Shown here: piece after piece, positions 14,711 to 60,969 of the stretch | Position numbering within the stretch: position 1 is the first letter of the stretch | Layout: every line of letters begins with the position of its first letter | Assembly (NCBI GenBank): GCA_963844395.1 | Contig: CAWJNX010000001.1 | Location: 857,252-921,251, forward strand | DNA from: an uncultured Solirubrobacterales bacterium | GTDB taxonomy: Bacteria; Actinomycetota; Thermoleophilia; Solirubrobacterales; 70-9 | Length of the DNA: 64,000 bases | Direction: 5' to 3' | The notes under the pieces: generated by a model | Told to the model about the DNA's origin: nothing | What the model saw: the letters and a program-made list of their open reading frames with translations, nothing else | Databases searched by the model: none | Program-made: the position numbers and the translations under genes

Positions 14711-14989
14711 TCAGCCGAGCAGTTCGGCGATGTCGTTGTAGTAGTAGACGACGGCGAGGCCGACCACGACCCCGGTCAGAACCAGGGCAAGGAGGACGAT
14801 CACCGAGAGGACGCCGGCCACTGCCTTCTCCCAGAGCCGTCCGTAGGAGCCGACGGCGGGGACGAGGATCAGGGCGACGAAGGCGACAAGGCTGACCGCC
14901 GCGGCGGCGCCGAAAAGCACGTACTCATCTTCGATCTTCTGCAGGGCGAGCGGGATCTCTTGCAACGCGAGTCGAAGCACGGGGCTCAT
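14711..14989 (-). CDS. Small two-TM membrane protein (hypothetical)
   Basis: The internal ATG at 14989 gives MSPVLRLALQEIPLALQKIEDEYVLFGAAAAVSLVAFVALILVP...VLLALVLTGVVVGLAVV. It overlaps the PAP2 tail in another frame. Confidence 0.35.
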   Translation of the reverse strand: MSPVLRLALQEIPLALQKIEDEYVLFGAAAAVSLVAFVALILVPAVGSYGRLWEKAVAGVLSVIVLLALVLTGVVVGLAVVYYYNDIAELLG

Positions 14990-16463
14990 TCTGTCGCAAC
15001 GCGGAGATGACGAGGGCGACGGCCGCGCAGAGCGAGAAGGCGGCCGCGCCAAGTGCCCAGCCGGCATTGACGTCGCTCAGGTAGTGGACGTCGAGATAGA
15101 CGCGCGAGAGGCCGACTGCGGCGGTCAACGCGATCCCGACAACGACCACCGCGGCGCCGCGCGTCATCCCGGTGCGCAACCGCATCACGATCGTCACCGC
15201 CAGCCAGACGTAGAAGGTCGAGTAGGCGGCATGGCCGCTGGGGAAGGAGGAGCCCGTGGCATCGACTAAGCCACCGTCCGGGCGGGGGCGGTCGATCGCG
15301 TCCTTGATCTCGTGGACGCCGGCGAAGGTGAGGCCGATTCCCACCGCGAGCACGCCCAGCTCGGCCCAGCGTTAACGGACGGCAAGCAATGCGCCGCAGA
15401 CAGCCGCGAGCGGCAGGACGAGGGCCGAGGAGCCGAGCACCGTGACGGCCTTGGCGACGTCGACCAGCCAGGCCGTGCGCAGGCTGTTGACGACGTCGAT
15501 CGCGGTCATGTCCCCGGGAGTCGGGCCGGCGTCGCCGCTGACGATCGACGCGTAGGCGACGAGAACGAAGCCGGCGACCGCGAGCGTCGCCATCAGCGTG
15601 GTGAACTCCAGCCCGAAGGTGCCGCCCGGCGTGACGCGGGCCCAGAGGAAGCGCAGCTGCGGCTGGAAGCGACGCCCGAGCACGACCGGCCAGCGAGCCA
15701 CCGCATGTCCCTCCATCCAGCGCACCGCGGCACGCCGGTTCTCCGCAACCCGAAGGCGGCGGTAGAGGAAGATCGAGCCGACGGTGACGGCGATCAGGGT
15801 GCCGAGCAGGAACGCCCCTCGACCCGCGTACTTGGCGGCGGTGTCGATGCTACGTGAGAAGACGTAGCCGATCAGGATGTGCGCCGAGGACCAGATTCCG
15901 GTGCCGAGGATGCTGTAGGGGACGAAGGCGCGGTAACGCATCCCCGAGCCGCCGGCGATGAACGGCGCCAGGGCGCGGACGATGCCGACGAAGCGGCCGA
16001 TGAAGATCGTCTTGCCTCCGTGGCGGGAGAAGTAGTCCTCGACCCCTTCGAAGCGCTCGTGGCCGAGTCCGAAGCGGGGCCCGTGTCGGAGCACGAAGTC
16101 GCGGCCGAGGCGGCGGCCGACCAGGAAGCTCGTCGTGTCCCCCGCCCAGGCGGCGAACCAGGCGATCGCGATCAGGATGTACACGTCGATTGCGCCCTGA
16201 CCGGCGACCGCACCGCCAAGCAGCATCACCGTCTCACCAGGGACGACGAGGCCGACGAAAGCGCCGGTCTCGGCGAAGGCGAAGACGCCGACCAGCAGGT
16301 AGGTCCAGGCGCCGAGCGTGTTGGAGACGTCCTCGAGCAGCTGCTGGAGGTCGTCGTGGGGGATGACGCGGCTGATCAGGTAGTAGCCGGCGGCGATCGC
16401 GGCGGCGATCGCGACGAGCACGACGCGCCGACGGCGGCGATCCTCTGGGAGCTGGAGTTTCAT
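14925..16463 (-). pseudogene. DedA-family / PAP2-phosphatase fusion protein interrupted by an in-frame TAA at 15372-15374
   Basis: ORFs 15372..16463 (DedA: ...FAETGAFVGLVVPGE...) and 14925..15353 (PAP2: KDAIDRPRP, PSGH, SRVYLDVHYLSD) are in the same frame. They are separated only by ...LAVR-TAA-RWAELGVLAV..., which falls inside the PAP2 TM domain. Confidence 0.75.
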
Positions 16464-44547: not shown

Positions 44548-44672
44548 CGGCGTCGGCGCTCCATGGCCGGGACCATAGCCGACTCTGTCGAAAGTAGGAA
44601 GTGCTACTGTCCACCGGTACTTGGCGGTCAGAACCGCCCCGCGCAGCGACCCAGCGACCCGAGGAGAGACCC

Positions 44673-45890
44673 ATGGCGACCGCGACGACCAACGGCTCGA
44701 AAGTCATCAAGCCCGACCACGAGTCGGGCGGCAAGCACTTCATCTTCAGCCAGGAGCACGAAGACCTGCGCGAGTCGATCCAGGCCTGGGTCAAGAAAGA
44801 GCTGTGGCCCCACCGCAACGAGTGGGAGGACACCTACTGGCCGACCGAGAAGATGAAGCGAGCCGGCGAGCTGGGCTTCCTCGGCCTCTGCTTCCCCGAG
44901 GAGTACGGCGGCCAGGGCGGCGACTACTACTACTCGCTGGTCCGCGCCGAGTGCATGAGCTACTCCGGCTCCGGCGGGACCAACATGGGCTTCGCCGTGC
45001 AGAGCGACATGGTCCTGCCGCCGATCCACCTGCTTGGCAGCGAGGAGCAGAAACAGCGCTACCTGGTGCCCGGGATCAAGGGCGAGAAGGTCGGCTGCCT
45101 CGGGATCACCGAGCCCGGCGCCGGTTCTGACGTCGCCGGCATCCGCACCACGGCGATCCGCGACGGCGACGAGTACGTGATCAACGGCTCCAAGACCTTC
45201 ATCACCAACGGCCCCCGCGCCGACTTCATTGTCCTCGTCGCCAAGACCGATCCCGAGGAGCGGCATGCCGGCATCACCCTCTTCGTCATCGACCTGCGCG
45301 ACGAGAACGGCGAGAAGGTGCCGGGCTTCAGCGTCTCCGCCGAGCTGGAGAAGATGGGCATGCACGCCTCCGACACCGGCGAGCTGGCCTTCGAAGACGT
45401 CCGCGTCCCGGCCGACTCGGTGCTGGGCGAGGTCGGCAAAGGCTTCTACCACATCGCCTGGGAGCTCCAGGGCGAGCGTCTCGTCGCAGCCGCCGGATCC
45501 CACGCCGGCTGCGAGCGGATGATCGAGAAGACCCTCGAGTACGCGAAGGAACGGGAAGCCTTCGGCCGTCCGATCGGCAAGTTCCAGGCGATCCGCCACA
45601 AGTTCGCCGAGATGGCGACCAAGACCGAGGCGGCGAAGCAGTTCACCTACGCGACCGCCTGGCGCTTCGCCAACGGCGAGTACCCCGTGCGCGAGATCAC
45701 GATGGCCAAGCTCTTCGCCTCGCGGGTCGGCTGCGAGGTCGCCGACGAGTGCATCCAGATCCTCGGCGGCTACGGCTACATGAAGGAGTACGAGATCGAG
45801 CGCGCCTACCGCGACGTTCGCCTCAACCGGATCGGCGCCGGCACCGACGAGGTCATGCTCGACGTGATCGGCCGCAGCTACGGGCTGTAG
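44673..45890 (+). CDS. Acyl-CoA dehydrogenase
   Basis: The ATG at 44673 follows gaggagag. It has ...GCLGITEPGAGSDVAGIRT... and ...QILGGYGYMKEYEIERAYRD. Confidence 0.9.
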   Translation: MATATTNGSKVIKPDHESGGKHFIFSQEHEDLRESIQAWVKKELWPHRNEWEDTYWPTEKMKRAGELGFLGLCFPEEYGGQGGDYYYSLVRAECMSYSGSGGTNMGFAVQSDMVLPPIHLLGSEEQKQRYLVPGIKGEKVGCLGITEPGAGSDVAGIRTTAIRDGDEYVINGSKTFITNGPRADFIVLVAKTDPEERHAGITLFVIDLRDENGEKVPGFSVSAELEKMGMHASDTGELAFEDVRVPADSVLGEVGKGFYHIAWELQGERLVAAAGSHAGCERMIEKTLEYAKEREAFGRPIGKFQAIRHKFAEMATKTEAAKQFTYATAWRFANGEYPVREITMAKLFASRVGCEVADECIQILGGYGYMKEYEIERAYRDVRLNRIGAGTDEVMLDVIGRSYGL

Positions 45891-45912: not shown

Positions 45913-46401
45913 GTGTCGCACGTGGACCACATCCGCTCCTACTACGCGGCGCTGAACACGGGCGATGCCGAGGCAGTCGCCTCTCACTTCACCGAGGACG
46001 CGGTCCATTACTACACGCGGCTCGGGCCGCACGATGGCGCCGAGACGATCGGCAGCTATGCCGCCCTGGCTGTGGAGAGCATCGACGGGCAGTGGTACGT
46101 CGAGAACGCGATCGAGCAGGGCGACCAGGTCACCATCGAGTGGACGATGACCTGGCGCCATCCAGAGAGCGGCGAGCGACGGCTCGACCGTGGCACCGAG
46201 TGGTTCCTCATCCGCGACGGCAAGATCGCCGAGGTGCGCGCCTACCACCACGGCGGCAAGAAGAACCCGCAGGGTGACCTGCTGGGCTTCGACCACAAGG
46301 GGCGCGGCTACACGATGCTCGAGAAATGGAAGGCGCCGACCGGCCGCACTCGCAGCGGCGCGGGTGACGGTGCAGAGAACGTGCGAGGGGTCGAGGCTTG
46401 A
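45913..46401 (+). CDS. SnoaL/NTF2-like fold protein
   Basis: ...IRSYYAALNTGDAEAVASHFTEDAVHYY...GTEWFLIRDGKIAEVRAYH has the typical SnoaL-like pattern. Confidence 0.7.
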   Translation: MSHVDHIRSYYAALNTGDAEAVASHFTEDAVHYYTRLGPHDGAETIGSYAALAVESIDGQWYVENAIEQGDQVTIEWTMTWRHPESGERRLDRGTEWFLIRDGKIAEVRAYHHGGKKNPQGDLLGFDHKGRGYTMLEKWKAPTGRTRSGAGDGAENVRGVEA

Positions 46402-47576
46402 CGGTCGTCAAGGACAGTGGGCAGCGCGCCACCCTGCCGCCCTTCAACGAGGAGCACGAGGAGCTTCGCGAGACGGTGAGCCGCTTCGTCGCCAGGGAGA
46501 TCGCGCCCAACGTCAACGAGTGGGAGGCGGCGCGCGAATTCCCCCGCGAGCTGTATGGGCGCTGCGCCGAGGTCGGCTTCCTGGGCCTCAAGTTCCCCGA
46601 GGAGTACGGCGGCCAGGGCGGCACCCACCTGCACGACGCGGTATGGGTCGAGGAGCTGGCCCGCTCGGGCGGCTCGGGCGGCGTCGCCGCCGGCCTCAAT
46701 GCCCACACCTCGATCGCGCTGCCGCCGATCTTCAACTTCGGCACCGAGGAGCAGAGGCAGCGCTGGCTGGTGCCCGGGATCGCCGGCGAGAAGATCGGCG
46801 CGCTGGGGATCACCGAGCCGGGCGCCGGCTCCGACGTCGCCGGCATCTCCACCTTCGCCAAGCGGGTCGACGGCGGCTACGTCGTCAACGGCTCGAAGAC
46901 CTTCATCACCAACGGCGTCCGCGCCGACTTCCTCGTCTGCGCCTGCAAGACGACCCAGGAGGGCAGCCACCACGGCATCTCCTTCCTCGTCCTCGAGCGC
47001 GAGATGCCCGGCTACGAGGTGGCGCAGAAGCTGGAGAAGATGGGCTGGCACTCCTCCGACACGGGGGAGCTCGCTTTCACCGATGTAGAGGTCCCGGCCG
47101 AGAACTTGCTCGGGGTGGAGAACGAGGGCTTCAAGCAGATCATGGCCAACTTCGCCTGGGAGCGGCTGCTGATGGCGATCGGCGCGGTCGGCGCGATGCA
47201 GCGCCTGATCGAGATCAGCGTCTCCTACGCCCTCGACCGCGAAGCCTTCGGCCGCCCGATCGGCAAGTTCCAGGCGATCCGCCACCAGGTGGCGGAGATG
47301 GCGACCAAGGCCGAGGCCGCCCGCGCCCTCACCTACAACTCCCTGCGCCTCTTTCACGAGGGTCACGACTGCATCCGCGAGGTCACGATGGCCAAGCTCG
47401 TAACCCAGCGCGCCGTCCTGGAGATAGCCGACCAATCCCTACAGATCCACGGCGGCTACGGCTACATGCGTGAGTACGGCATAGAGCGAGCCGTCCGCGA
47501 CGCCCGCCTAGGCCCAATAGGCGGCGGCACCGACGAGATCATGAAGGAGATCCTCGGCAAGCAGATGGGGTTGTAG
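46398..47576 (+). CDS. Acyl-CoA dehydrogenase (its last 12 codons lie inside the attL repeat)
   Basis: It has ...GALGITEPGAGSDVAGIST... and ...QIHGGYGYMREYGIERAVRD...MKEILGKQMGL*. Confidence 0.9.
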   Translation: MTVVKDSGQRATLPPFNEEHEELRETVSRFVAREIAPNVNEWEAAREFPRELYGRCAEVGFLGLKFPEEYGGQGGTHLHDAVWVEELARSGGSGGVAAGLNAHTSIALPPIFNFGTEEQRQRWLVPGIAGEKIGALGITEPGAGSDVAGISTFAKRVDGGYVVNGSKTFITNGVRADFLVCACKTTQEGSHHGISFLVLEREMPGYEVAQKLEKMGWHSSDTGELAFTDVEVPAENLLGVENEGFKQIMANFAWERLLMAIGAVGAMQRLIEISVSYALDREAFGRPIGKFQAIRHQVAEMATKAEAARALTYNSLRLFHEGHDCIREVTMAKLVTQRAVLEIADQSLQIHGGYGYMREYGIERAVRDARLGPIGGGTDEIMKEILGKQMGL

Positions 47577-47584
47577 GGATTAGC
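47539..47584. repeat. attL core (46 bp)
   Basis: It is an exact duplicate of 53007-53052. It contains the ACAD codons MKEILGKQMGL plus the stop. Confidence 0.85.
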
Positions 47585-47621
47585 AGGGGTTTCCTGCGAA
47601 TCCTCCGCCTCGTCTGAGGCA

Positions 47622-47644
47622 GGCGGACACGATTCGGACACATC
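47622..47644. repeat. Candidate integrase arm-type site (left)
   Basis: ggcggacacgattcggacacatc matches tgcagacacaatccggacacatc at 52869-52891 at 19 of 23 positions, in the same orientation. Confidence 0.4.
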
Positions 47645-48755
47645 GCGCCGCGCCTGCTCGATCTGATCCTCGGCAGACACGCGCTCGGCGATGTCGAACT
47701 CATCGAAGACGTGTGCGTAGACGTCGAGCGTCATGGTCGGCGAGTGCCCGGCCTGCCGCGCGACCTCGACCACGCTGCGGCCTTCGTGGATCAGGAGCGA
47801 AACGAAGCTGTGGCGCAGGTCGTACGGGCGAGCCCCCTCCAAGCCGACGGCGCGACAGGCGGGTGCCCAGGCGTCACGGTGCCAGGTCTGCCAGGCCGGG
47901 TCGTTCCAGACGCCGCCTGAGCCGTTCGGGAACAGGAGCGCGCCATCGTCGGCCTGGTCAAGCGAGCGCCGCCACCCGGATAGGTCGTCGGCCAGCGGGG
48001 CCAGCAGGCGAACCGTCCGCGCCTGACCGGTCTTGGTCGTCTTGACGCCGCCCTGGCCGTCAGCGGCCTTCTCGACCAACAGCGTCCGCTCGCGCACATC
48101 GCCCCAGCGCAGCGCAAGCGCCTCCTGGGGGCGCAGCCCGGCGTAGGCGAGCAATCCGGACCAGCGCCGCATCCCGAGCGCCGTGCTTGCGCCTCTTGGC
48201 GGCGACAGCGCGCAGCTGCTCCACGGTAAGCGGCGACAGCGGTCGCACCTCTCGCTGCCTTCGGACCTTCGGCTTCTGCACTGCCTTGACCGGGTTGTGG
48301 CCGATCCGCCGCCACTCGACCGCTCGCCGCAGCACGCCCTGGAGAAGCGCAAGCGCCCGGTAGATGGTCGGCTGCCCCACCCCATCGGCTTCCAGCTCGG
48401 CCCGGAAGCGCTCGACAACCTCCGGCGTGATCGCGCTGAGGCGCATCGAGCCGAGCCGCGGCAAGACGTGTCGATCCCAAAGGCCCGCGTAGCTGCGAAG
48501 AGTGCGCGCCGCAAGGTTGGGAACCGCGTAGAGCTTCCACCACTCCTGCGCGAAGTCGGTGAGCGTTTCCCGCCCGCCCGTAAGCAAGTCCAGGTCACCG
48601 GTGCGCTTGCGCCGCACGACCTCGGCATCGAAGGCATCCGCGTCGCGCTTGCGGCCGACCACTTTCGAGCGAGCCCGCCCCTGCTCGTCGCGCCAGCGCA
48701 CCCGCCAAACGGCCCCGCCCTTCCGCTCAACCCGTTCGACGCTCATCCACCCCGC

Positions 48756-49040
48756 CTAGCCTTCCGCGCTCTCATCGAGCAGGACGCGCAGGCTGCCCTG
48801 CGCCCCAGCGGTTCGACCCCGAGATCGCCGAGGTGTTGACGGATCTGCTCCCCGCGTTTCCTCGGCGATCCACCGCTCCAGCTCTGCCGGATGCACGCGA
48901 AGCCGATGACAGAGTCGCGCCGCCCGCAGCTCTCCCCGAGCAATCGCCCGGTAGACCGCCCGACGCGAAAGCCCGCAAGCGCGGGCAACGTCCTCCGGCG
49001 ACAACATGGGCTCGATCTCGATGTGGTTCTCGTCGCGCAT
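48756..49040 (-). CDS. Excisionase-family / MerR-like HTH DNA-binding protein
   Basis: It has ...MLSPEDVARACGLSRRAVYRAIARGELRAARLCHRLRVHPAELERWI.... It lies 9 nt upstream of the integrase start. Alternative starts are at 49007, 49064 and 49133. Confidence 0.7.
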   Translation of the reverse strand: MRDENHIEIEPMLSPEDVARACGLSRRAVYRAIARGELRAARLCHRLRVHPAELERWIAEETRGADPSTPRRSRGRTAGAQGSLRVLLDESAEG

Positions 49041-49396
49041 TTCCTCTGCACCCCACCTGTCCATTGAGAGCGCCAAATGCATCGGCTCGGACACGAAATC
49101 GACCGACCGCCAGCGAGATCGCCGCGCGGCCATACAGGCGGCCGCCGCACGGCGAAGCCGTGCCAAAATCGGCCGCCAGCCGTCCGGCGAAAAAGAGCCG
49201 CCCCAGGCGTCAAACCGGAGGGTTCCCAGTGTGTCGTGCTGTTGAGTGCGGGTTACAGGGACGCTTTGAGAGGTCCACGGCAGGCTCTCGGGTGCCTTGG
49301 TCGAGTCTTGCTCTGATGCTTTTCTGGTTTGAACTTGGGCTGGGCGATCTGGATTGCTTCTGCTTGGTTGCTGCTGATGGTTTCTGGCATCGCCTC

Positions 49397-49690
49397 TCAT
49401 TGCCTCGCCTCGGGCCGAGGCGGGAGCGTGAACGCTCCGGCCTGAGTGCTGCCGGCCTTCCAGACGATCCCGTCCAGCAGATCGCAAGGCGAGACTTCCA
49501 GGGCACCGGCGAGTTTGATCAGCGTGTCGATTCGGGGCACGCGAGTTCCCCGCTCCAGCAAGCTGATCTCCGTGCGATGGAGAGAGGCGCGGATGCCAAG
49601 CTCCTCCTGGCTGAGACTGGCTCGTTCTCGCGTATGGACGAGATTTGCAGCGAAACGTCGAGCCACCTCCATGGTCATTTGTCTCTCCAC
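49397..49690 (-). CDS. Xre (Cro/CI)-family HTH regulator
   Basis: It has ...LVHTRERASLSQEELGIRASLHRTEISLLERGTRVPRIDTLIKLAGAL. Confidence 0.85.
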   Translation of the reverse strand: MERQMTMEVARRFAANLVHTRERASLSQEELGIRASLHRTEISLLERGTRVPRIDTLIKLAGALEVSPCDLLDGIVWKAGSTQAGAFTLPPRPEARQ

Positions 49691-49971
49691 AGCCGCTCGA
49701 AATAGACCGCGGAGCGCGTCGGCATGACGAGGACTCCATTACTGCGCAGAAGGCCGACGGCCGTGAGGTCCCGCACGGCACGGGCGAGCGCATCGCCTTC
49801 CGCGAAGTCCTCGGGGTCCTCACAGACCTCGGCGGCAAGCTCGGGGAACGTGAGGTGGATCGGATGCAGCGAGAGGACGTGCCGTAGAACGGCGCGCTCG
49901 GTCCGTTCGTCTTCTTGGGCTGGGGTAAGCGGATCGCCTGAGCCGCGATCCGTAGGCTGGGAACAGGACAT
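49675..49971 (-). CDS. Hypothetical winged-helix-like protein co-transcribed with the Xre regulator
   Basis: 98 aa. ...ERAVLRHVLSLHPIHLTFPELAAEV...ARAVRDLTAVGLLRSNGVLVMPTRSAV. It overlaps the downstream xre by 16 nt. Confidence 0.6.
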   Translation of the reverse strand: MSCSQPTDRGSGDPLTPAQEDERTERAVLRHVLSLHPIHLTFPELAAEVCEDPEDFAEGDALARAVRDLTAVGLLRSNGVLVMPTRSAVYFERLWRDK

Positions 49972-50225
49972 GGGAGCTGAACCCCCTGCGTCTCAGGCGG
50001 CCCGTCGTGTTTGCGCACGGCGGGTCGCCGCTTCTTGGAGCCGGCAGGTCGATACCGTTCCCGCTGCGGCCGGCCTGGTGAGAGCTATGCCGGTCGCCAC
50101 GGGGCCGGTGTTCACGCACGCGGCCCCACTTATGTCCCGCAGAGCCTAGCAAAGCCTGCGTACATGTTTGTAGAGCGATGTATGCAGCAGCCTTTAGCGC
50201 TGACGCTTCTGAGAACGTGCAGCCG

Positions 50226-50462
50226 ATGCGCCGCTCAGAGCGACCTCAACCTGCCCTTGGCGAGGCCGTTCGCCAGCTTCGTGAGAAGCGCGGCGCAACC
50301 CAGGAGGCCATCGCCCGCGACGCCGGCATCACGACCGCCACCCTCTCCCTGATCGAGCGCGGCCAGGCCAACCCGACCTGGGACACCATGAAGAAGATCG
50401 CCGCCTCTCTCGGCTCCTCCATGGGAGAGCTAGGCAAGCTCACTGATGGCCTCGAGAACTGA
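50226..50462 (+). CDS. Xre-family HTH regulator (divergent partner of 49397-49971)
   Basis: The internal ATG gives MRRSERPQPALGEAVRQLREKRGATQEAIARDAGITTATLSLIERGQANPTWDTMKKIAASLG. Confidence 0.8.
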   Translation: MRRSERPQPALGEAVRQLREKRGATQEAIARDAGITTATLSLIERGQANPTWDTMKKIAASLGSSMGELGKLTDGLEN

Positions 50463-50565
50463 GCGGACCGCTGGTGGGAGTACGAGCGGGTAGGCCAGAT
50501 TTGGGAAAGGAGGCGGAATCATTTGGTTCCGCCGCGACATCGGTCAAGATACGTATGGGATTTCG

Positions 50566-51063
50566 ATGGATGAGAAAACTTTCAAAGAACTAGCCGGCCG
50601 CTTGAAAAAGGCGAGCGTTGTGATCGAGAAGCTCGACCCGGTTATCCGAGAGGACGCGTGGAAGATGTTGCGCCCATTTGTCAGACCCGACGCGAAGGAT
50701 TCAGGGTCGATCCGCTCGGAGAACGGAGGCGCTGGCGGCGAAGGACCTCCGCCGCCGGATTCGAGCGAGGACGACTTGATCGAGAAGTTCGAGAGCGAGA
50801 AAGAGGCGGAGAACCTTTATCTGACCCTCGCCATTCTCTACAAGCGTCATGGAAAGGGGCCATTCTCTCTGGACGTGATCCGCGCCGCAGGGACGTCACT
50901 CAATCTTTCGCTGCCTGAGCGGCCCGACACGACCCTAAGGAACAGCACGAGAAAAGTCGTGCGTAAACAGGGGAACGGCTACAAGGTTCAGCCTGGTGGC
51001 GAAAAGTGGCTCAAAGAGAAATATGGAGTCGCTAAGGGCAAGCAGCCTATCTCGGATGACTAG
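50566..51063 (+). CDS. Hypothetical protein P1: N-terminal helical segment, Gly/Pro/acidic linker, wHTH-like C-terminus
   Basis: 165 aa and A/T-richer than the surroundings. The C-terminus LYLTLAILYKRHGKGPFSLDVIRAAG...VVRKQGNGYKVQPGGEKWL resembles the N-terminus of P2. Confidence 0.65.
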   Translation: MDEKTFKELAGRLKKASVVIEKLDPVIREDAWKMLRPFVRPDAKDSGSIRSENGGAGGEGPPPPDSSEDDLIEKFESEKEAENLYLTLAILYKRHGKGPFSLDVIRAAGTSLNLSLPERPDTTLRNSTRKVVRKQGNGYKVQPGGEKWLKEKYGVAKGKQPISDD

Positions 51064-51797
51064 TGACGCTTGCGGAGTTCTTGCATCCGACGCGGCGTAG
51101 CTCGAAGCGAGAGCAGATTCTTGCCACGCTCTTTTACTTCAAACATCATGCTGGCCGAGATGACGCGACTGTCCGCGAAATTCGAGAGGGCTTGGTCCAA
51201 GCGAATATCCCTCGCTCTCGCAAAGCAAACTTGAGCGACGCCTTGGCTGGTGCAATCCCGCTTGTAGACAAATTGGGCGGTGGGCATTGGCGGATCACCA
51301 AAAGCGGTGAAGATCATGTCCGCGAGGAGCTGGCCCTTCCGGACGAACTGCCGCAAGTTCAAGAGGACGTAAGCACGCTGCTGCATTTGTCCCGCTCACT
51401 CGCCGACGAAACGGTGCAAGAGTATGTAGATGAGGCAATTAAATGCCTTCAGGCCGGAGCCAGACGTGCTGCCGTCGTATTCCTATGGAGCGGCGCGGTT
51501 CATGAGATGCGTGAGCGCGTATGGAACAACGGCAAGCGACAGATTGAGGAAGCCCTTCAGCAGCGGAATCCGAAGGCTCGATTCCGACGGAAGGACGACT
51601 TTTCAGTCGTGAAGGACAGCGCCCTCATTGAGCTCACCGGCGATTTTTCGATTTTCGACAAGTCGCAGAGGAAGCGATTGGCTGAGGGTCTCGACCTCCG
51701 AAACGATTGTGGGCATCCGGTGAAGTATCGGCCTCGTGAGAAGAAGGTATCGAGCTTCATCGAGGACGTTCTGCAGGTGGTGTTTGACGCAACCTGA
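51063..51797 (+). CDS. Hypothetical protein P2: wHTH N-terminal domain + HEPN-like C-terminal domain (R213-NDCG-H218)
   Basis: The GTG start overlaps the P1 stop (TAGTG). The C-terminal half is ...AIKCLQAGARRAAVVFLWSGAVHEM...LAEGLDLRNDCGHP..., a helical bundle with an Rx4H motif at nt 51699-51716. Confidence 0.65.
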   Translation: MTLAEFLHPTRRSSKREQILATLFYFKHHAGRDDATVREIREGLVQANIPRSRKANLSDALAGAIPLVDKLGGGHWRITKSGEDHVREELALPDELPQVQEDVSTLLHLSRSLADETVQEYVDEAIKCLQAGARRAAVVFLWSGAVHEMRERVWNNGKRQIEEALQQRNPKARFRRKDDFSVVKDSALIELTGDFSIFDKSQRKRLAEGLDLRNDCGHPVKYRPREKKVSSFIEDVLQVVFDAT

Positions 51798-51836
51798 GGG
51801 AACTTGCTTGACAGAGAAACGAGGCGGGGCCGGCGT

Positions 51837-52007
51837 TTAGCCGGACCCGTTGGTCCTCTGGCCGAGCCTCGTGACGTCGCTCGCCTGGCCCTCGCGGAGA
51901 CGACGCTTAACGCGCTTGGCGTACTCCTCCGGGGAAATCTCCTCCCGGAGCAGGCGGAGATACTCCTCGGAGGGGCCGGTGGGTACTGCGCCGCCGTTCG
52001 TTGCCAT
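51837..52007 (-). CDS. Small basic helical protein downstream of the GAF gene (hypothetical)
   Basis: The sequence is MATNGGAVPTGPSEEYLRLLREEISPEEYAKRVKRRLREGQASDVTRLGQRTNGSG. It lies 48 nt after the GAF gene stop on the same strand. Confidence 0.35.
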   Translation of the reverse strand: MATNGGAVPTGPSEEYLRLLREEISPEEYAKRVKRRLREGQASDVTRLGQRTNGSG

Positions 52008-52055
52008 TGTCCTTCGCCTTTCCGTTCCTGGTCTCGCCATAAGGACCTCCAGAGT

Positions 52056-52814
52056 CTAGTGCTCGCCCCCGTCGTCATCTGATGTCGGCCTCGCCAAGCT
52101 CCAGACGACGCCGATTATCGAGCCGAGAACGTCGATGTACATCAGCTCTGATGGGAGAAACGCGTGCTTCTTCGTAGACAGAACGCTCAAGATCGCGACG
52201 ATCTCGCTCCCCACCCGCACCGGCGCGCATGCCAGAGAGCCATACTCCCGGCCGGGGCGTGCCTGCGGATGGGGTGTCCACCGCGGGTCTGCCTCGACGT
52301 CGTTCGTCCATAGCATCTCGCCGCCGACGAGCACGTGACCAGCGAAGGAACCTGTAGTCGGAAGCTCGAACTTTTGGCGGGCCTCCAGCGAATGTCCAGC
52401 CTCGAACAACATCGAGAAGCGGCCGCCTTCAGGCAGGAGCACCGAGAGCCGGATCTCCTCTCCTTTGCGCTTGGGCGCCACGAGCCACTGTCGGGCGGGA
52501 ACGAGAATCCCCCGCTCGATGAATGCCTCGGCGCTGACGCCGGGGATATCGCCGGTGACGATCTTCTGGAGCGCTTCGAGAATCTCGCGGACATGGTCAA
52601 CGTAGAACGGCTCAAGGTTCTCTCCGGCCTCCGCGATCCTGCCGGCAATGAATGCGACTGGGAGGAAAATAGCCACGGCGATAAGAACCCAAAGGGGAAC
52701 TGGCGCATCGAGGATGCCGGTAGCGAGAGATAGCAGCGTGATGACGCCACCGACAATCAGAGCCAGGATCACACCCCGGGCGATCTCACTAGGCGATGGA
52801 AGCACGGACGGCAT
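52056..52814 (-). CDS. Membrane-anchored GAF-domain protein (2 TM + GAF, no output domain)
   Basis: The N-terminus has GVILALIVGGVITLLSL / LWVLIAVAIFLPVAFIAG. A GAF-like fold follows: ...SFAGHVLVGGEMLWTNDVEADPRW...GSLACAPVRVGSEIVAILSVLS. Confidence 0.7.
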   Translation of the reverse strand: MPSVLPSPSEIARGVILALIVGGVITLLSLATGILDAPVPLWVLIAVAIFLPVAFIAGRIAEAGENLEPFYVDHVREILEALQKIVTGDIPGVSAEAFIERGILVPARQWLVAPKRKGEEIRLSVLLPEGGRFSMLFEAGHSLEARQKFELPTTGSFAGHVLVGGEMLWTNDVEADPRWTPHPQARPGREYGSLACAPVRVGSEIVAILSVLSTKKHAFLPSELMYIDVLGSIIGVVWSLARPTSDDDGGEH

Positions 52815-52868
52815 GACCGGTGATCCTAGTCCTGGGCTCGGCGTTCACCAGAGGCTGCCAACCTCAGA

Positions 52869-52891
52869 TGCAGACACAATCCGGACACATC
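52869..52891. repeat. Candidate integrase arm-type site (right)
   Basis: See 47622-47644. It lies 116 bp inside attR. Confidence 0.4.
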
Positions 52892-53006
52892 AGCCGGGTC
52901 GCCTGCGATCACGCCCGATCATCCGTCTCGCCCTCAAACAAGCTCATTTGCGGGGAGTCCTCGTCCTCGGATGATCCGGCGTGCCCTCCCGTGCCATGCT
53001 CGGGGC

Positions 53007-53052
53007 TCATGAAGGAGATCCTCGGCAAGCAGATGGGGTTGTAGGGATTAGC
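53007..53052. repeat. attR core (46 bp)
   Basis: It is an exact duplicate of 47539-47584. Confidence 0.85.
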
Positions 53053-53054
53053 GG

Positions 53055-53408
53055 GTGTTCGCACGCGGCCATCAACCAGCCCTCGGCGACGCCGTCCGCC
53101 TGCTCCGCGAGAAGCGCGGCATGACCCAGGAAGCCGTAGCCCAGGCCGCCGGCATCACGACCGCCACCCACTCCCTGATCGAGCGGGGCCTAGCCAAGCC
53201 AACCTGGGACACCGTCAAGAAGATCGCCGCCGCCCTTGGCTCGTCGATGGGCGAGCCAGGCAAGCTCACTGACGACAAGCTCGACACCGGCTGCGCGCCG
53301 ACGTCGCGCAGACGGTTACCCGAAAACAGCTACGCGACCTGGACTGTCTTGTGGCCGGCTTCTTCGCGCAGGTTGAACTTCTCCCGTGGCCGACCGGACG
53401 GGGTGTAG
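53055..53408 (+). CDS. Xre-family HTH paralog abutting attR (probably 5'-truncated, with a 3' extension)
   Basis: The GTG lies 3 nt after the att core. By hand count, nt 53070-53276 versus 50244-50450 match at 173 of 207 positions. The tail runs 79 nt into the convergent DUF2188 gene. Confidence 0.6.
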   Translation: MFARGHQPALGDAVRLLREKRGMTQEAVAQAAGITTATHSLIERGLAKPTWDTVKKIAAALGSSMGEPGKLTDDKLDTGCAPTSRRRLPENSYATWTVLWPASSRRLNFSRGRPDGV

Positions 53409-53563
53409 ACGATGACCGTCCCCTTGTCCTGTTCGAGGAGCACCGCTCGCGCCTGGGCAACGGCTTCTTCGAGCCGCGGGTGCGTCGAAAGCACCTTCTT
53501 CTCCCTACGGACTTGCCACATCCCCGAAGGCGAATCCTTCACAACGTCGAATTCGGTAGCCAT
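53330..53563 (-). CDS. DUF2188-like small protein
   Basis: The ATG at 53563 gives MATEFDVVKDSPSGMWQVRREKKVLSTHPRLEEAVAQARAVLLEQDKGTVIVYTPSGRPRE. Confidence 0.65.
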   Translation of the reverse strand: MATEFDVVKDSPSGMWQVRREKKVLSTHPRLEEAVAQARAVLLEQDKGTVIVYTPSGRPREKFNLREEAGHKTVQVA

Positions 53564-53636
53564 GCGTTCCTTTCGTCGTTGTACAGAAAGTTTAGTTCCT
53601 GTGGCGGCGTCTGAAGGGCTTGCAAGAGACGACGTT

Positions 53637-54962
53637 CTACTGTGCGAGTTGAGCATTTCCGGGCTCGAAGAACCGCGCGTACAGTTTCCGCACCTGACCC
53701 TCCGTAAGCCCGGCGAGATAATCGCAGATCAGCCTGTGCAGGTCACCCTGACTGTCTTCGGCCGAACGCAGCTGAGGCCGCATTCTCCGCGGAAAGAGCA
53801 GGAAGCGGTCACGGGGAGGTTCGCGTAGACAGCTGTCGTACAGCGCTTGGAAGAGCCGGTCGAGGATCTCGTGTCCCTTGAAGAAGACGCCAGCCGTGAT
53901 CTCGCTGCGCAGCAGGTACTCGACCGTGATCGCCTTCAGCACCTGGTTGCGCACCCGCATCTCTTTCGGAATCTCCAGCCTGTAGTCGAAGAGGGTCTCT
54001 CCCGGACCGATCGCAACCACGTCGCCGGCGAGGACGAACTCGTTGATGAAGCCCCGCGAGAGCTCGCGGACGACGTCCAAGGGAATCTCAGGCGCCCACT
54101 TCGCGAGCGCGTTGTAGAGCTCGCCGAGGATCTCGGTCACTTCCTCCTCGCTTGGGACTTCCTCATCGACCCAGACCCTTGGCGCGTCGGCGATGCTTCT
54201 GTAGACGGTCTCGACAAACTGGTCCGACTTCCAGGTCGCGGGCAGCAGCAGGCCGCTGGCGATCCCGTCCTCGAGGTCGTGAACCGAGTAGGCGATGTCG
54301 TCCGCCCAGTCCATCAGCTGGCAGGGCAGCGTGCGCGGCGGCCGGTCCACCGGCTTCTGCAGCAGTCCTTGGTCAGTACCGTCGTAGAGCCACTTCACCA
54401 TCTCGGGTCCAGTGTCGTCGGCGTAGAGGAACTTCCCCGCCTTCGTGTCCCCGTTGCGCTCGTAGGGGTACTTGAGCAGTGCCAGCAGCGTTGCCCTGCA
54501 GAGGTCGAGACCGAGGTAGTCCCAGTGCTTGGGCTCGATCCTGGTGACAATGCGGAAAGTCTGCGCGTTGCCCTCGAAGCCGCCATGGTCCTTCATCCGC
54601 GCGTTGAGCGTTTCCTCTCCGGTATGGCCAAACGGAGGGTGGCCAAGGTCGTGCGCCAGGCAGGACGCCTCCACCAGGCTCATGGGCACTCCGAAGCGGC
54701 CAGCAAGGCCGCGGCCGATCTGCGAGACCTCGATTGAGTGGGTGATCCGGGTGCGCAGGAAGTCAGCTGCGTGGGGCTCGAAGATTTGCGTCTTGCCCTG
54801 CAGGCTCCTGAAGGCAGCCGAGTGAATGATACGGGCACGGTCGCGCTCGAACGGGCTGCGCGAATCCTTGTCGTCCTGCGCCGGCTCGTCGATGTTGTAG
54901 CGGGCAGTTTCCCGCTCGGAGAAGAAGTCGAACTCCTCAAGTCCCCCCACGCTTGAATCCAT
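53637..54962 (-). CDS. dGTPase-family (HD-domain) deoxynucleoside triphosphate triphosphohydrolase
   Basis: The ATG at 54962 gives ...SPFERDRARIIHSAAFRSLQGKTQ...RITHSIEVSQIGR...LAHDLGHPPFGHTGE.... Confidence 0.85.
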   Translation of the reverse strand: MDSSVGGLEEFDFFSERETARYNIDEPAQDDKDSRSPFERDRARIIHSAAFRSLQGKTQIFEPHAADFLRTRITHSIEVSQIGRGLAGRFGVPMSLVEASCLAHDLGHPPFGHTGEETLNARMKDHGGFEGNAQTFRIVTRIEPKHWDYLGLDLCRATLLALLKYPYERNGDTKAGKFLYADDTGPEMVKWLYDGTDQGLLQKPVDRPPRTLPCQLMDWADDIAYSVHDLEDGIASGLLLPATWKSDQFVETVYRSIADAPRVWVDEEVPSEEEVTEILGELYNALAKWAPEIPLDVVRELSRGFINEFVLAGDVVAIGPGETLFDYRLEIPKEMRVRNQVLKAITVEYLLRSEITAGVFFKGHEILDRLFQALYDSCLREPPRDRFLLFPRRMRPQLRSAEDSQGDLHRLICDYLAGLTEGQVRKLYARFFEPGNAQLAQ

Positions 54963-55092
54963 ATCACCTGGAGAGCGCCTTGGGCGTTCCCTTGCGGAAA
55001 TAGGACGATGCCGGGAATCGACGACAGATGTCGAATTGGAACGCGCACACGCTTCCCGCGGTCTGGAGCGGGTAATAAGCGAAGGAGCGATC

Positions 55093-55278
55093 ATGCCTGA
55101 AAGCCGGCAGAACATCTCGATTACGGCGCCCCTGGTGATACGGCGCGCCGATTTCTTCGCCGCGCTCGCCTCCCCTCAGGTGCAATCGACCCTCGCCCAC
55201 GCGCGGGCGATCCTTGCTGCGGAGCGCTTCCCCCCACGAAACGGTCGCCGTGCCCGCGGGGGTTTCTCGCGACCCTAG
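55093..55278 (+). CDS. Small ORF (61 aa) with a strong SD, convergent with the GNAT-like gene
   Basis: gaaggagcgatcATG. The sequence is MPESRQNISITAPLVIRRADFFAALASPQVQSTLAHARAILAAERF.... Third-position GC is high. Its stop and the GNAT stop share one CTAG. Confidence 0.5.
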   Translation: MPESRQNISITAPLVIRRADFFAALASPQVQSTLAHARAILAAERFPPRNGRRARGGFSRP

Positions 55279-55853
55279 ACGGGCGGCTCGCGGATCGGAT
55301 ACCAGAGGCGCGGCGGGGCGCCGGCTGGCTGATCCTCCGGTGCTGCACGCTCGAAGTGGAAGCGCCGCATCCAGAGTTTCTCGGCTGTTTCGTCGTCGTG
55401 GGGGGTGACGACCATAGCCGTGGCCTCTTCGTCCATGCCGATCGAGACCGCGTACTCGAAGAGCTGGGTACCGAAGCCGACCGGGCTGTTGGAGCTGCGT
55501 GCGATCCACGAGACGTCGACGGCGATCTCCAGCTTGTCGGTGGGAACATCCCCGTCGGAGTCCGGAGCGAACCTGAACGGTATGAAGCCGAGCACACAGA
55601 AGGCGAGCAGCTCGTTGCGGGGAGTGAGATCGAGCACGGTGAGCAGCGGCAGTTCGGGCGAGCGCAGCTGACAGCGGAGCCAGCTGAGCGCGTCCTTGGC
55701 GGCATCGAAGGGCAATGGCTTAAACTTCTCGATCGCGGCAACGAGAGTCGGGTCAAGATCGCGTGTCAGGGTGCCGGCGGGAAGTCGGACCTTGAAGGTC
55801 TCCACGGCCTCCATAGCGCTGCTGCCACTCACTGTGATCCCTCTCTCGCCCAT
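55275..55853 (-). CDS. GNAT-fold acetyltransferase-like protein
   Basis: It has ...LAFCVLGF...VSWIARSSNSPVGFGTQLFEYAVSIG...AMVVTPHDDETAEKLWMRRFHF. An SD (aggaagg) lies before the ATG at 55853. Confidence 0.6.
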   Translation of the reverse strand: MGERGITVSGSSAMEAVETFKVRLPAGTLTRDLDPTLVAAIEKFKPLPFDAAKDALSWLRCQLRSPELPLLTVLDLTPRNELLAFCVLGFIPFRFAPDSDGDVPTDKLEIAVDVSWIARSSNSPVGFGTQLFEYAVSIGMDEEATAMVVTPHDDETAEKLWMRRFHFERAAPEDQPAGAPPRLWYPIREPPV

Positions 55854-56070
55854 GCTCGCCTTCCTGCCCCGATTCTCGAATTCCGCCGCCGGCCTGCGAG
55901 CACTTGCGCATCGCTGACTGGATGTGAAGAAAACTCAGCTGATCTTTACTCAGCCGTCCCTTTGCAAACGACCGCCGTTTACAAGTCTAGCCGATCGAGT
56001 GTCGGCAACGGTACGCCTGTGCGAGGACCAAGGTACGCCGAAGAATCGACTGGGCGGTGCTCGGCTGCGG

Positions 56071-56265
56071 TCAGCCGGCGAGGCCTTGTCGGCGGCGGAG
56101 GCATTGCGCGTGCGCTTCGCTGTTCATCACCTGCACACCGGGATGGTCGAGGTTCGAGACAAAGGACGAGATCGGGATGTTCATGGACCCCGAGCGCCGT
56201 TGCAGGGCCTCCTGCGGCGACGCATAGACCTCGCTCCTCCCAGAGGGCTTGTCCAAAATCGTCAT
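56071..56265 (-). CDS. Small hypothetical ORF (64 aa) with a strong SD in an A/T-richer gap
   Basis: gaaggagtcagccagATG. The sequence is MTILDKPSGRSEVYASPQEALQRRSGSMNIPISSFVSNLDHPGVQVMN.... I recognise no family. Confidence 0.4.
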   Translation of the reverse strand: MTILDKPSGRSEVYASPQEALQRRSGSMNIPISSFVSNLDHPGVQVMNSEAHAQCLRRRQGLAG

Positions 56266-56618
56266 CTGGCTGACTCCTTCGATTCGATTGACATGTGCCT
56301 GATTTCCGAATCGTCGGAGGCACCGCTCCGACCCGGTGCGCAAGATAACAGACCGTTCCCATGTAGTTTTCTGAGACGCCCTGTCTACGCTCGATGGGCC
56401 TGGTTGGGGAAGTCTGGACGGGGAGGTGGGGACGACGCCTTCGCTAGCCGAGCTCGCTGACCTCTATGGGACCGACAGGAGCCCGGTCAGCCCCAGCCCA
56501 ACTACCCGACGGGAATTCCGGCGGGTTTCGTCCCGCAGGGAATGGCTTGAGCCGCTTCGCGGCTAGCCGGTGGGGAGCGTAGGATCGTCGGGAGGCAGGC
56601 CCGACGAAAGGAGATCCG

Positions 56619-56921
56619 ATGCTCTGTGCATTGACCGTTCGCAAGCTGAAGCCCGGCTCGATGGAAGACTTCAAACGGGCGTTCGTTCCGCAGGACACCT
56701 CGAATGTCCCCTCGGGCTGGAAGAAGTTCTACGCGCTGCAGAACGTCAACAACGAGAACGAGGTGATCACCTTCGGCCTCTTCGACGGCACGCTCGAGGA
56801 GCTGCGGGCCGGGCAGCAAGGCGGCGAATACGACGAGCGGCGGGCGGCGGGCGACGAGTTCGTCGAATCGGTCGGCGCCGACGGCGTCTTCGATGTCGTC
56901 GAGGAACGCTCGATGGACTGA
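56619..56921 (+). CDS. Small ferredoxin-like (ABM/Dabb-type) protein, hypothetical
   Basis: aaaggagatccgATG. It is 100 aa with an alternating beta/alpha pattern. The functional assignment is weak. Confidence 0.55.
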   Translation: MLCALTVRKLKPGSMEDFKRAFVPQDTSNVPSGWKKFYALQNVNNENEVITFGLFDGTLEELRAGQQGGEYDERRAAGDEFVESVGADGVFDVVEERSMD

Positions 56922-59649: not shown

Positions 59650-60481
59650 ATGGGACTTCTCGATGGGAAAACGGCGATCGTCACCGGCTCCGCCCGTGGC
59701 ATTGGACGGGCCACTGCCGAGCTGTTCGTGGCTGAGGGCGCCAAGGTTCTGATCAACGACCTCGACGCCGACATCGCCGAGCAGGCGTCAGGCGAGATCG
59801 ATGGCGAGACGGCCGTCCACGCCGGCGACCTGACCAAGGAGGGCGCGGCCGACGAGCTCGTCGCCGCCGCGGTCGACGCCTTCGGCAGCGTCGACATCGC
59901 CGTCAACAACGCCGGCTACACCTGGGACGGCGTCGCCCACAAGATGAGCGACGAGCAGTTCCAGGCGATGCTCGACATCCACACCGTGGTCCCCTTCCGG
60001 GTCGCCCGGGCGCTCGCCCCCCACTGGCGCGAGGCAGCGAAGGCGGAGCGCAATGAGGGCAACGAGGTCTTCCGCAAGCTGATCAACGTCTCCTCGACCT
60101 CGGGCACGATGGGCAACGCCGGCCAGGTCAACTACTCGGCCGCGAAGATGGGCGTCGTCGGCCTGACCAAAACCCTCGCCAAGGAGTGGGGGCAGTTCAA
60201 GATCAACGTCAACGCCGTCGCCTTCGGCTTCGTCGAAACGCGCCTGACCCAGGCAAAGGAGGCGGGTGAGGAGATGACCTCGCCGGGCGGGGAGAAGATC
60301 GAGCTGGGCATCCCCGAGCAGATGCGGGCGATGGCCTCGGCGATCATCCCGATCGGCCGTCCCGCCACGCCCGAGGAGGCGTCGGGCCCGGTGCTGTTCC
60401 TCGTCCTCGCCGCTGGCCAACTACATGCACGGCCAGGTCCTCAACGTGACCGGCGGCATGTTCGGGGGGATGTACACCTGA
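59650..60481 (+). pseudogene. FabG-like short-chain dehydrogenase/reductase with a 1-nt insertion at about 60403
   Basis: It has ...TAIVTGSARGIGRA...NNAGY...YSAAKMGVVGLTK.... After GPVLFL the expected tail SSPLANYMHGQVLNVTGGMFGGMYT* is in the +1 frame, with its stop at 60479-60481. Confidence 0.8.
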
Positions 60482-60561
60482 GCTCGACGGCAACAGAGGG
60501 CAGGCCGTCGCCCCGCTACCTCGACCTGGCGGACCGGGTCTGGCCTGCCCTCCATCGCTTC

Positions 60562-60969
60562 ATGGGCCTCCACACGCTCGCCTACCGGGCGAGCGGTGGA
60601 CGGCTCGGCCACACGCTCCCCGGCGTGCCGGGCAAGATGCTGCTGCTCGACCACGTCGGGGCCAAGAGCGGCACGAAGCGCACCTCTCCCCTCCTCTACG
60701 TGCCTGACGGCGAGAACGTCTTCATCGTCGCCTCCAAGGGCGGCTTCCCCAAGCACCCCGCCTGGTACCACAACCTGATGGCCAACCCGGACACGACGGT
60801 GCAGATCGGCCGTGAGCGGCGACCGGTCCATGCCCGCGTCGCGACGCCGGAGGAGCGGGAGCGCCTCTGGCCGATGGCGGTGCGGGCCTATCGCGGCTAC
60901 GCCGACTACCAGAAGCGCAGCAAAGGCCGCGAGATCCCGCTGGTCGTGCTCGAGCCGCGCAAGCCTTAG
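60562..60969 (+). CDS. Deazaflavin (F420)-dependent nitroreductase family (DDN/DUF385) protein
   Basis: It has MGLHTLAYRASGGRLGH...LLLDHVGAKSGTKRTSPLLYV...VASKGGFPKHPAWYHNLMANP...YQKRSKGREIPLVVL. Confidence 0.8.
   Translation: MGLHTLAYRASGGRLGHTLPGVPGKMLLLDHVGAKSGTKRTSPLLYVPDGENVFIVASKGGFPKHPAWYHNLMANPDTTVQIGRERRPVHARVATPEERERLWPMAVRAYRGYADYQKRSKGREIPLVVLEPRKP

Follow-up and report, generated by a model that had tools for sequence, protein, structure and literature searches.

The acyl-CoA dehydrogenase gene, its island and the DNA beyond

The window analysed here is a stretch of 64,000 nucleotides (nt) from an uncultured Solirubrobacterales bacterium (assembly GCA_963844395.1, contig CAWJNX010000001.1, positions 857,252 to 921,251), in which a small integrative island occupies 47.6-53.0 kb, at the 3' end of a gene encoding an acyl-CoA dehydrogenase (ACAD, 46398-47576). 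This report concerns the DNA that follows the island, from ~53051 to 56493. An earlier reading of the same sequence, here called the original prediction, took this segment for an older relative of the island that had decayed at the same attachment (att) site, and the evidence set out below makes it very probable that it is the internal stump of such an element. For comparison, 80 ACAD-anchored loci were fetched with the ACAD protein (the best 80 of ~564; 87-96% amino acid (aa) identity), all from metagenome-assembled genomes of uncultured Solirubrobacterales or other uncultured Actinomycetota, and metagenome loci (n=30) were also scanned. Loci are designated by L numbers.

The island is bounded by a direct repeat of 53 nt (47539-47591 and 53007-53059, 96% identity), the leading 46 nt of which are identical. 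The attL core (47539-47584, plus strand) supplies the 3' end and stop codon of the ACAD gene, and the attR core (53007-53052, plus strand) doubles as the junction with the segment beyond. Between the cores lie 5.4 kb of DNA (47585-53006) carrying an integrase gene (int), an excisionase gene (xis), a second helix-turn-helix (HTH) gene, an Xre gene, unique cargo and the P' arm (~52780-53006). The N-terminal, SAM-like domain of the integrase (PF14659, 8.7e-11) is encoded in the open reading frame (ORF) 48060-48746 and the catalytic domain (PF00589, Phage_integrase, 1.4e-12) in the frame of 47462-48730, both on the minus strand, as are xis, of the excisionase-type HTH_17 (48756-49013; PF12728, 3.4e-12), and the second HTH gene (49397-49690). 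The island Xre gene (50178-50462) is on the plus strand. Integrase domains, HTH_17 gene, direct repeats and a regenerated gene 3' end together mark 47.6-53.0 kb as a tyrosine-recombinase integrative island. Repeats of GGACACnnTTCGGACACATC occur in the P arm (47623-47644) and in the P' arm (52870-52891), 86% alike; they are kept in the arms of relatives, and are likely to be arm-type binding sites of the integrase.

The segment beyond attR opens with a truncated Xre gene, designated Xre' (53055-53408, plus strand). As originally predicted, it starts 3 nt past the 46-nt attR core, with a GTG codon, in an ORF of 117 aa with homology to the Xre family of these islands over 53070-53288. An exact recount of the match between 53070-53276 and the island Xre gene (50244-50450) returned the 173 of 207 identical positions that had been counted by hand (blastn E 1.5e-60); at the protein level 55 of 67 residues were identical (82%, E 4e-37). 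The Xre-type HTH domain is intact (Pfam HTH_31, 2.8e-13). The similarity runs from about codon 23 of the island Xre to a few codons before its stop, and relative to the genes of the island, L069 and L112 (described below) Xre' is without its promoter, its first ~22 codons and its stop codon. The claims that its 5' end had been replaced at the att junction and that it had lost its normal stop were thus both borne out. The ORF overlaps the convergent DUF2188 ORF, which begins at 53330, by 79 nt, and the counterpart in L112 stops (TAG) directly after the residues DKRDT, where Xre' reads on as DKLDTGCAP; the stop codon has therefore been truly lost, together with ~230 nt. The DKLDT end resembles the DKRDT of L112 and is unlike the DGLEN of the island Xre. 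Because both its 5' end and its stop codon are gone, Xre' is probably a pseudogene; the source annotation lists it as a gene (P0001). Over ~220 nt its distance was 0.150 to the Xre genes of L111 and L112 against 0.195 to that of the neighbouring island, so that a recent local duplication is not its source.

Between the attR core and Xre' a second trace of the island's gene order was detected. The 20 nt at 53051-53070 (GCGGGTGTTCGCACGCGGCC, plus strand) match island positions 50104-50125 at 19 of 20 positions with a 2-nt gap, a score that was reached by 1 of 5000 shuffles and by none of 363 other windows, and the same match was obtained to L069. In the island these positions, ~55-75 nt upstream of the start of Xre, belong to the divergent intergenic region. 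What corresponds to island 50126-50243 (~118 nt, comprising the rest of the promoter and codons 1-22) is deleted after this remnant. Since the remnant and Xre' keep the order of the island, the old module is collinear with it over two blocks. The end-point of the left deletion lies at most 7 nt from the attR core, and the similarity between GGGGTT in the P arm and GGTGTT in the upstream region may represent microhomology used in the deletion. The dot-plot proposed in the original prediction was replaced by blastn (word size 7) and tblastx of the island against 53.0-57.0 kb. This comparison recovered the Xre segment and the 20-nt piece (as a 22-nt blastn match, E 0.79), but nothing else significant was common to 47.5-53.0 and 53.0-57.0 kb; the attR core was also returned, within the 21-nt overlap of query and subject. 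The spacer 53286-53327 (42 nt) gave no meaningful match.

The remainder of the segment is a 3.04-kb operon on the minus strand (53328-56368), arranged as a single transcription unit of four genes: a small ORF (within 56071-56343), a gene for a 192-aa protein (55275-55853), a dGTPase gene (53637-54962, 441 aa) and a gene for a 77-aa DUF2188 protein (53330-53563; Pfam 6e-08). Both the DUF2188 gene and the dGTPase had been named in the original prediction. The dGTPase carries HD and HD_assoc domains, matches the PADLOC dGTPase model at 6.7e-113 (a model without a curated cut-off) and passes the general dGTP triphosphohydrolase model TIGR01353 with 279.6 bits against a cut-off of 152. Against the anti-phage dGTPase model NF041026 it scored 324.4 bits and did not reach the cut-off of 400. 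A longer, 492-aa version of the ORF was discarded, the true start giving 441 aa; an exact-protein look-up of the 492-aa form returned no record.

The 192-aa protein had been called GNAT-like. No family match at the sequence level accompanied this claim (no Pfam match at E<=1, no PDB sequence match below 0.29 and no PHROG match), but the predicted fold agreed with it. An AlphaFold (AF2) model built on a 6-sequence alignment (pLDDT 72.2, pTM 0.67) gave 77 Foldseek matches in the PDB at E<=1e-3, and all 50 of the 50 listed were GNAT acetyltransferases, with TM-scores of ~0.4-0.7 among the matches listed. The TM-score was highest for the AtaT2 toxin (0.59 by query and 0.69 by target length). A GNAT acetyltransferase fold is thus assigned to the predicted structure with moderate confidence. 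The highest TM-scores of the model were to the tRNA-acetylating toxins AtaT, TacT and KacT, and the small ORF precedes the GNAT-fold gene, as antitoxin genes do in the AtaT/TacT/KacT systems. The small ORF had no family match, and PHROGs, PADLOC and NCBIfam yielded nothing useful for it.

The composition of the segment differs from that of the window. Its GC content is 0.635, against 0.689 for the bulk of the 64 kb, and its tetranucleotide correlation to the bulk was 0.92, compared with >=0.964 for bulk chunks of 3.4 kb, so that the k-mer comparison suggested in the original prediction agreed with an accessory segment. An A/T-richer stretch at 55.9-56.4 kb had also been noted; its GC of 0.61-0.63 lies below the bulk, but the whole module does so, and the stretch is in effect no lower than the rest of it.

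Beyond the operon, DNA shared with relatives resumes at 56496 (L008 and L068) or at 56566-56604 (16 loci). The intervening 125 nt (56369-56493) form an orphan stretch that matched none of the fetched loci and stands at the position occupied in L112 by a spacer of 174 nt and then a P' arm with the second core. It is followed by the 3' remnant of a GST-like gene, here geneX (56494-56566, plus strand), which retains ~24 codons with a 1-nt frameshift and ends in EWLEPLRG and a stop codon. The full gene starts 11 nt after the ACAD stop codon in L068 and after the island attR in L008; ~225 of its codons are missing from the window. A promoter-like motif, GCGTAGGATCG, the 5' untranslated region and the Shine-Dalgarno (SD) sequence of the next gene (56619-56921) occupy 56567-56618 on the plus strand.

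The original prediction had also seen a weak, gapped resemblance to the att core at 56553-56588 and considered it a candidate third att. The resemblance exists as described, with 19 of 24 aligned columns (56556-56587) matching the core and one gap, but it did not withstand a formal alignment. The 46- and 53-mers were aligned locally to 56.4-56.7 kb under two scoring schemes, with shuffles and the whole window as controls. Against 56400-56700 the att core scored 11 (match +1, mismatch -1), and 289 of 3000 shuffles (9.6%) scored at least as high, as did 15.7% of the remaining windows of 301 nt; with the stricter scheme, the top match in 56.4-56.7 kb was only an SD-like 10-mer, AAGGAGATCC. The candidate was rejected, in line with the refuting outcome that the original prediction had itself set for it: its score is at the level of chance, and it is made up of the stop-codon end of geneX and the promoter of the next gene. 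This promoter, with GCGTAGGATCG, stays with that gene at its different locations in relatives such as L001, L030, L041 and L047, at 2-8 kb from any att. The window holds only two cores and one P' arm; no second copy of that arm was found, including at 56.3-56.6 kb.

Counterparts of the segment in related genomes

Across the 80 loci the genes upstream of the island site were syntenic (carboxyltransferase, enoyl-CoA hydratase, ACAD paralogue, ACAD), and a homologue of the gene at 59650, used as a downstream anchor, was found in most of them. The interval from ACAD to this anchor is a shuffled, variable zone. No blastn match to 53300-56400 was obtained in any of the 80 loci, nor any tblastn match to the DUF2188 protein, the dGTPase, the 192-aa protein or the ORF at 55979. 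This absence, together with the deviant composition, indicates that the genes at 53.3-56.5 kb are accessory. A syntenic core in relatives, which the original prediction had named as an outcome that would contradict it, was not what they formed.

In ~16 of the 80 loci, int-xis(-Xre) islands of the same family sit at this core, with P and P' arms 72-93% identical to those of the window, and many more loci hold remnants without int, in which a core is retained on the left and a P' arm and core on the right. Variable cargo follows directly after Xre in all family members. Comparison of relatives at ACAD, as the original prediction had advised, returned both int-less remnants and tandem arrays more than once (L014, L044, L065 and L079). 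In L044 a core and 127 nt of P arm, including the last 27 codons of int, lead straight into the Xre promoter, and a P' arm and core follow ~3.9 kb further on. L079 retains a core with 105 nt of P arm, after which Xre begins in mid-gene, at about codon 35-50, and a P' arm and core follow. In L014, on contig CAVVNN010000004.1, a 9.7-kb island ends in a core identical to that of the window, beyond which come P arm of the attL type (13 nt) and then Xre with its promoter, a hybrid attR/attL junction; this second module is known only to Xre codon 49, at the end of the locus. L065 has three cores, and shorter or other remnants were seen in L002, L003, L012, L016, L051, L062 and L072. To judge from these alignments, the leftward int operon has been lost repeatedly while Xre and cargo were kept, in at least five lineages (the window, L112, L014, L044 and L079), and the losses look independent because their end-points differ.

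The closest homologue of the dGTPase (P0034, 92% aa identity) is encoded on JGI contig Ga0673083_0000035, which constitutes L112. There the upstream genes (89% nt identity) and ACAD (92% nt identity), with core1, are followed immediately after the ACAD stop codon by AbiEi/AbiEii. The Xre gene comes next; it has a 1-nt frameshift, is 86% identical at the nt level to Xre' and 90% to the island Xre, and ends in DKRDT and a stop codon. A 270-nt spacer leads to a block of 3050 nt that is 88.4% identical to window 53328-56368, and 174 nt further on lie a P' arm with the arm-type repeat and core2, which jointly match window 52875-53044 at 82% identity. The order is completed by another module, made up of RES/Xre and DUF433/DUF5615 pairs, then a P' fragment with core3 and a glyoxalase gene. 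The Xre-operon element of L112 is thus bounded by att sites, without an integrase, at the same ACAD gene, and the island of the window is absent from L112. Relative to L112 the window is without ~230 nt including the Xre stop codon, and without the stretch after the operon through the P' arm and core. The left sides also differ: the AbiE cassette of L112 abuts the Xre start, and the window is deleted down to the Xre-upstream fragment. Because these left rearrangements are not the same, the common ancestor probably had a more complete left arm. The three cores of L112 lie within 7482-16292 (reverse complement), where all cargo belongs to defence or toxin-antitoxin (TA) systems, and on the evidence of its gene content the ACAD 3' end behaves as a defence/TA hotspot.

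Homologues of the operon were also located away from any island. The whole block is present in L113 (8565-11624) at 79% nt identity with the same ends, the homology ending at exactly the same bases as that with L112, and the four proteins are kept in both loci (89-96% aa identity in L112, 72-87% in L113). In L114 (8535-11619) and L115 the gene order is alike, with a small ORF, a ~187-aa protein, a dGTPase and a 77-aa protein. A two-gene dGTPase-DUF2188 version occurs in L082 (10016-11640) and in L116 and L117 (10001-11628), amid core genes of high GC3; the L082 block has a GC3 of 0.77 and its neighbours 0.92-0.98. Across the contexts examined the DUF2188 gene is always directly downstream of the dGTPase gene, and five contexts add a ~190-aa GNAT-fold gene and a ~65-aa ORF upstream of it. 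An int-bearing element carrying this operon was found neither among the 80 genome loci and the 30 metagenome loci nor in the contexts of P0034, P0035, P0038 and P0047.

Published work bears on the function of the cargo. dGTPases defend by depletion of dGTP (preprint 10.1101/2021.04.26.441389), and DUF2188 has been linked to defence operons (10.1101/2022.04.27.489752). With the PADLOC dGTPase match, these reports make a role of the operon in phage defence likely, as far as can be inferred from the encoded proteins. The cargo enzyme is like the anti-phage dGTPase of Tal et al. (PADLOC, NF041026) in its HD and HD_assoc domains and in its setting within a defence/TA-rich hotspot; it differs in falling below the NF041026 cut-off and in its company, as it comes with DUF2188 and in five contexts also with the GNAT-fold gene and the small ORF.

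The described anti-phage system reportedly consists of a single gene. The conserved dGTPase-DUF2188(-GNAT) gene set is of interest as a candidate defence system.

Origin of the segment beyond attR

These data point strongly to ~53051-56493 as the internal stump of an older element whose family is also that of the island at 47.6-53.0 kb. This family comprises small tyrosine-integrase islands that target the 3' end of ACAD and regenerate it through the 46-bp core. The older element would have carried the four-gene dGTPase/DUF2188 operon downstream of its Xre, probably as its cargo. On the left it would have lost the whole leftward arm (P arm, int, xis and HTH genes) down to the 20 nt upstream of Xre and a further ~118 nt; internally ~230 nt, including the Xre stop codon; and on the right the P' arm, the att core and, from the neighbouring GST-like gene, ~225 codons. 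Between ACAD and the stump there would now lie a second island of this family, the overall course being site-specific tandem accretion followed by deletional decay. Since the new island sits in this position, the present attR core is the junction of its P' arm with DNA of the old element. The old element presumably arrived first, and may have been kept because its cargo was useful. Its greater age is suggested by its heavy erosion and by its being shared with L112, the operon (88%) having diverged about as far as flanking core genes (87.5-92%), compared with 46 of 46 identical positions in the cores and unique cargo in the island, and by Xre' lying closer to the genes of L111 and L112 than to that of the island. 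The original prediction's central claim, of an older related element beyond attR whose int/xis arm is gone, is strongly supported by the absence of the segment from the 80 loci, the arrangement in L112, the 20-nt fragment and the remnants and arrays of relatives. Its further proposal, that the current island inserted into the attL of the older element, may be correct, as it fits the geometry and the presence of the module in the island-free L112.

As an accretion array the locus is incomplete. A core (53007-53052) is present with the new P' arm on its left and the Xre-upstream fragment and Xre' on its right, and the two elements are related (Xre 82% at the aa level; the P' arm and core of L112 82% identical to those of the island). 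The outer third core is missing from the window and present in L112 (core2 and core3) and L065. Because the outer core and P' arm are absent, the array is not demonstrably complete from the window sequence. The case rests mainly on one contig, L112. The modules of L044, L079 and L112 agree with the definition of a cis-mobilizable element (CIME). In the window int and xis are absent from the older module, but the right att is absent too, and because this outer site is gone the stump falls outside that definition.

Several observations weigh against this interpretation. The window holds no third core and no second P' arm; the Xre tree is based on only ~220 nt; the host of L112, at 89-92% nt identity in flanking genes, is no closer to that of the window than many relatives without the module, and the closest relative, L001, is also without it; and copies of the operon with identical ends stand in unrelated parts of chromosomes where no integrase is close by (L113, L114/L115 and, as two genes, L082, L116 and L117). 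The module-less relatives may reflect loss along lineages or horizontal acquisition. Because the operon is also found away from islands, its arrival in the old element, or in what remained of that element, may have been a separate event, and this is the main residual uncertainty of the favoured reading.

That uncertainty takes its sharpest form in the proposal that Xre' alone is a relic of an older element, the dGTPase operon being a portable cassette that landed separately before the lineages of the window and L112 split. The identical ends of the 3.04-kb block in L113, its relatives in L114/L115 and the two-gene pairs of L082, L116 and L117, all of them amid core genes with neither integrase nor att, speak for a cassette, as does an Xre-operon spacer of ~40 nt in the window compared with ~270 nt in L112. 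Yet the operon lies directly after Xre in the two genomes where it occupies the ACAD site, which is exactly where every family member places its variable cargo, and in L112 it falls within the interval from a core to a P' arm and core. The shared ends, moreover, coincide with those of the operon itself (the DUF2188 stop codon and the upstream promoter region), so they may reflect selection on a functional unit rather than a mechanism of mobility. Separate arrival of the operon is consequently considered unlikely, with perhaps a small chance of being correct.

It is less probable still that Xre' arose as a local partial duplication of the island Xre, through aberrant excision or integration or through slippage, next to ordinary accessory genes of the chromosome that were never mobile. 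Such an origin would account for the sharing of merely ~220 nt between the two segments and for the lack of a third att; it is difficult to reconcile with the 15-20% divergence of Xre', its distance of 0.150 to the L111 and L112 genes against 0.195 to the adjacent one, its L112-like C-terminus, and the occurrence in L112 of the same Xre-operon pair in att-bounded DNA without the island of the window. There is almost no prospect that 47.6 to ~56.5 kb is a single composite island, possibly still excisable as a unit, with its right end at 56556-56587. The proximity of the att-like stretch to the point where DNA shared with relatives resumes (56494-56577) speaks for such an end, but the frequency of its alignment score among shuffles and other windows, the better local match of the SD-like 10-mer, the derivation of the stretch from geneX and a promoter that is conserved far from any att, and the lack of a P' arm upstream of it are all contrary to this.

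Comparable systems and further features of the locus

The favoured reading, an older eroded element beside a newer island, corresponds to a three-step route that has been described, in which an element integrates, decays to an att-bounded CIME without recombination genes, and is joined by a second element that enters the att site carrying the target gene's end (PMC5704250). Accretion and decay of this kind are known for ICESt1/ICESt3 and the CIMEs of Streptococcus thermophilus (Pavlovic 2004; Bellanger 2011; PMC5704250) and for integrative and mobilizable elements generally. In the window, as with ICESt1/ICESt3 and CIME, related elements of shared specificity lie next to each other at a target gene's 3' end with an internal core between them, the older partner is without recombination genes and the newer one adjoins the target-gene end. 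Unlike a CIME, the old module is also without its outer arm and att site, and what is left is a stump with no cis-mobilization. Unlike ICESt1/ICESt3, neither element of the window has conjugation or mobilization genes that could be seen, the host is an uncultured member of the Solirubrobacterales, and the target is an acyl-CoA dehydrogenase gene and not fda or a tRNA gene.

Streptomyces AICEs (actinomycete integrative and conjugative elements) and DAICEs undergo accretion and decay at one site, with zero to three elements per strain (PMC9513070). The elements at ACAD resemble the AICEs in being actinobacterial, in the varying number of elements at one site, in remnants that lack key genes and are flanked by direct repeats, in cargo that includes phage-resistance genes and in frequent pseudogenes. 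They are much smaller (~4-10 kb), and traB, rep and the other signature genes of AICEs were not detected. Both the element family and its target, ACAD, seem not to have been described; the process is standard accretion and decay and reveals no new mechanism. The locus represents a well-documented case from an uncultured soil actinobacterial order in which islands would have stacked and eroded at one att site and left useful cargo behind, here a probable anti-phage dGTPase operon. It also bears on how island boundaries are drawn, as an att core can mark the junction with an older relic and not with the chromosome proper. A more speculative extension, which is put forward tentatively and is doubtful at present, is that the small ORF, the AtaT/TacT-like GNAT-fold gene, the dGTPase and DUF2188 form a multi-gene defence module that moves as a unit between unrelated sites, and that the ACAD 3' end is a nucleation site which locks in defence/TA cargo through repeated loss of the int operon.

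Within the current island, the two integrase domains lie in different frames owing to a 1-nt insertion in the region of 48147-48175 (GGTCCGGA, where relatives have GAT-CGGA). Both domains are in a single frame in 14 relatives, and L014 has a different 1-nt insertion; the insertions in the island and L014 may be real decay or an error of (long-read) sequencing. The int frame crosses the att core (47462-47600 region) and continues for ~115 nt antisense to the ACAD 3' end before its stop codon, and the annotated intact relative in L111 is alike (int 6005-7288, ACAD 4947-6119, overlap 6005-6119). Because the frame extends through the core into ACAD, the C-terminus of the integrase would differ between the integrated and the excised state. 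The cargo of the island (50566-52814) comprises a 165-aa ORF, a 244-aa ORF (51063-51797) and a minus-strand gene for a GAF-domain protein. It had no counterpart in any of the 80 loci; the 244-aa ORF matches phrog_27609 (unknown function), and PHROGs, PADLOC and NCBIfam gave nothing useful for the rest. A plus-strand ORF at 49724-50149 is probably spurious, as the real genes there are on the minus strand.

Upstream of the island the two ACAD paralogues are in tandem (44601-45890 and 46398-47576), with 72-82% nt identity in segments and ~54% aa identity, and a SnoaL-like gene between them (45913-46401) is present only in some relatives. Downstream, the motif GCGTAGGATCG / GCGTACGATCG lies ~40 nt upstream of the 100-aa gene 56619-56921 and recurs in about a dozen relatives despite differing upstream neighbours; it is likely to be the -10 region of that gene. 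The product of the downstream anchor (59650-60969) has 439 aa and joins a short-chain dehydrogenase to an F420H2-dependent quinone reductase domain, which may reflect either fusion of two genes or a missed stop. Next to ACAD, tblastn matched only about residues 1-251 of this protein in most of the 80 loci, and in L116 and L117 the dehydrogenase and quinone reductase domains are encoded by separate genes.

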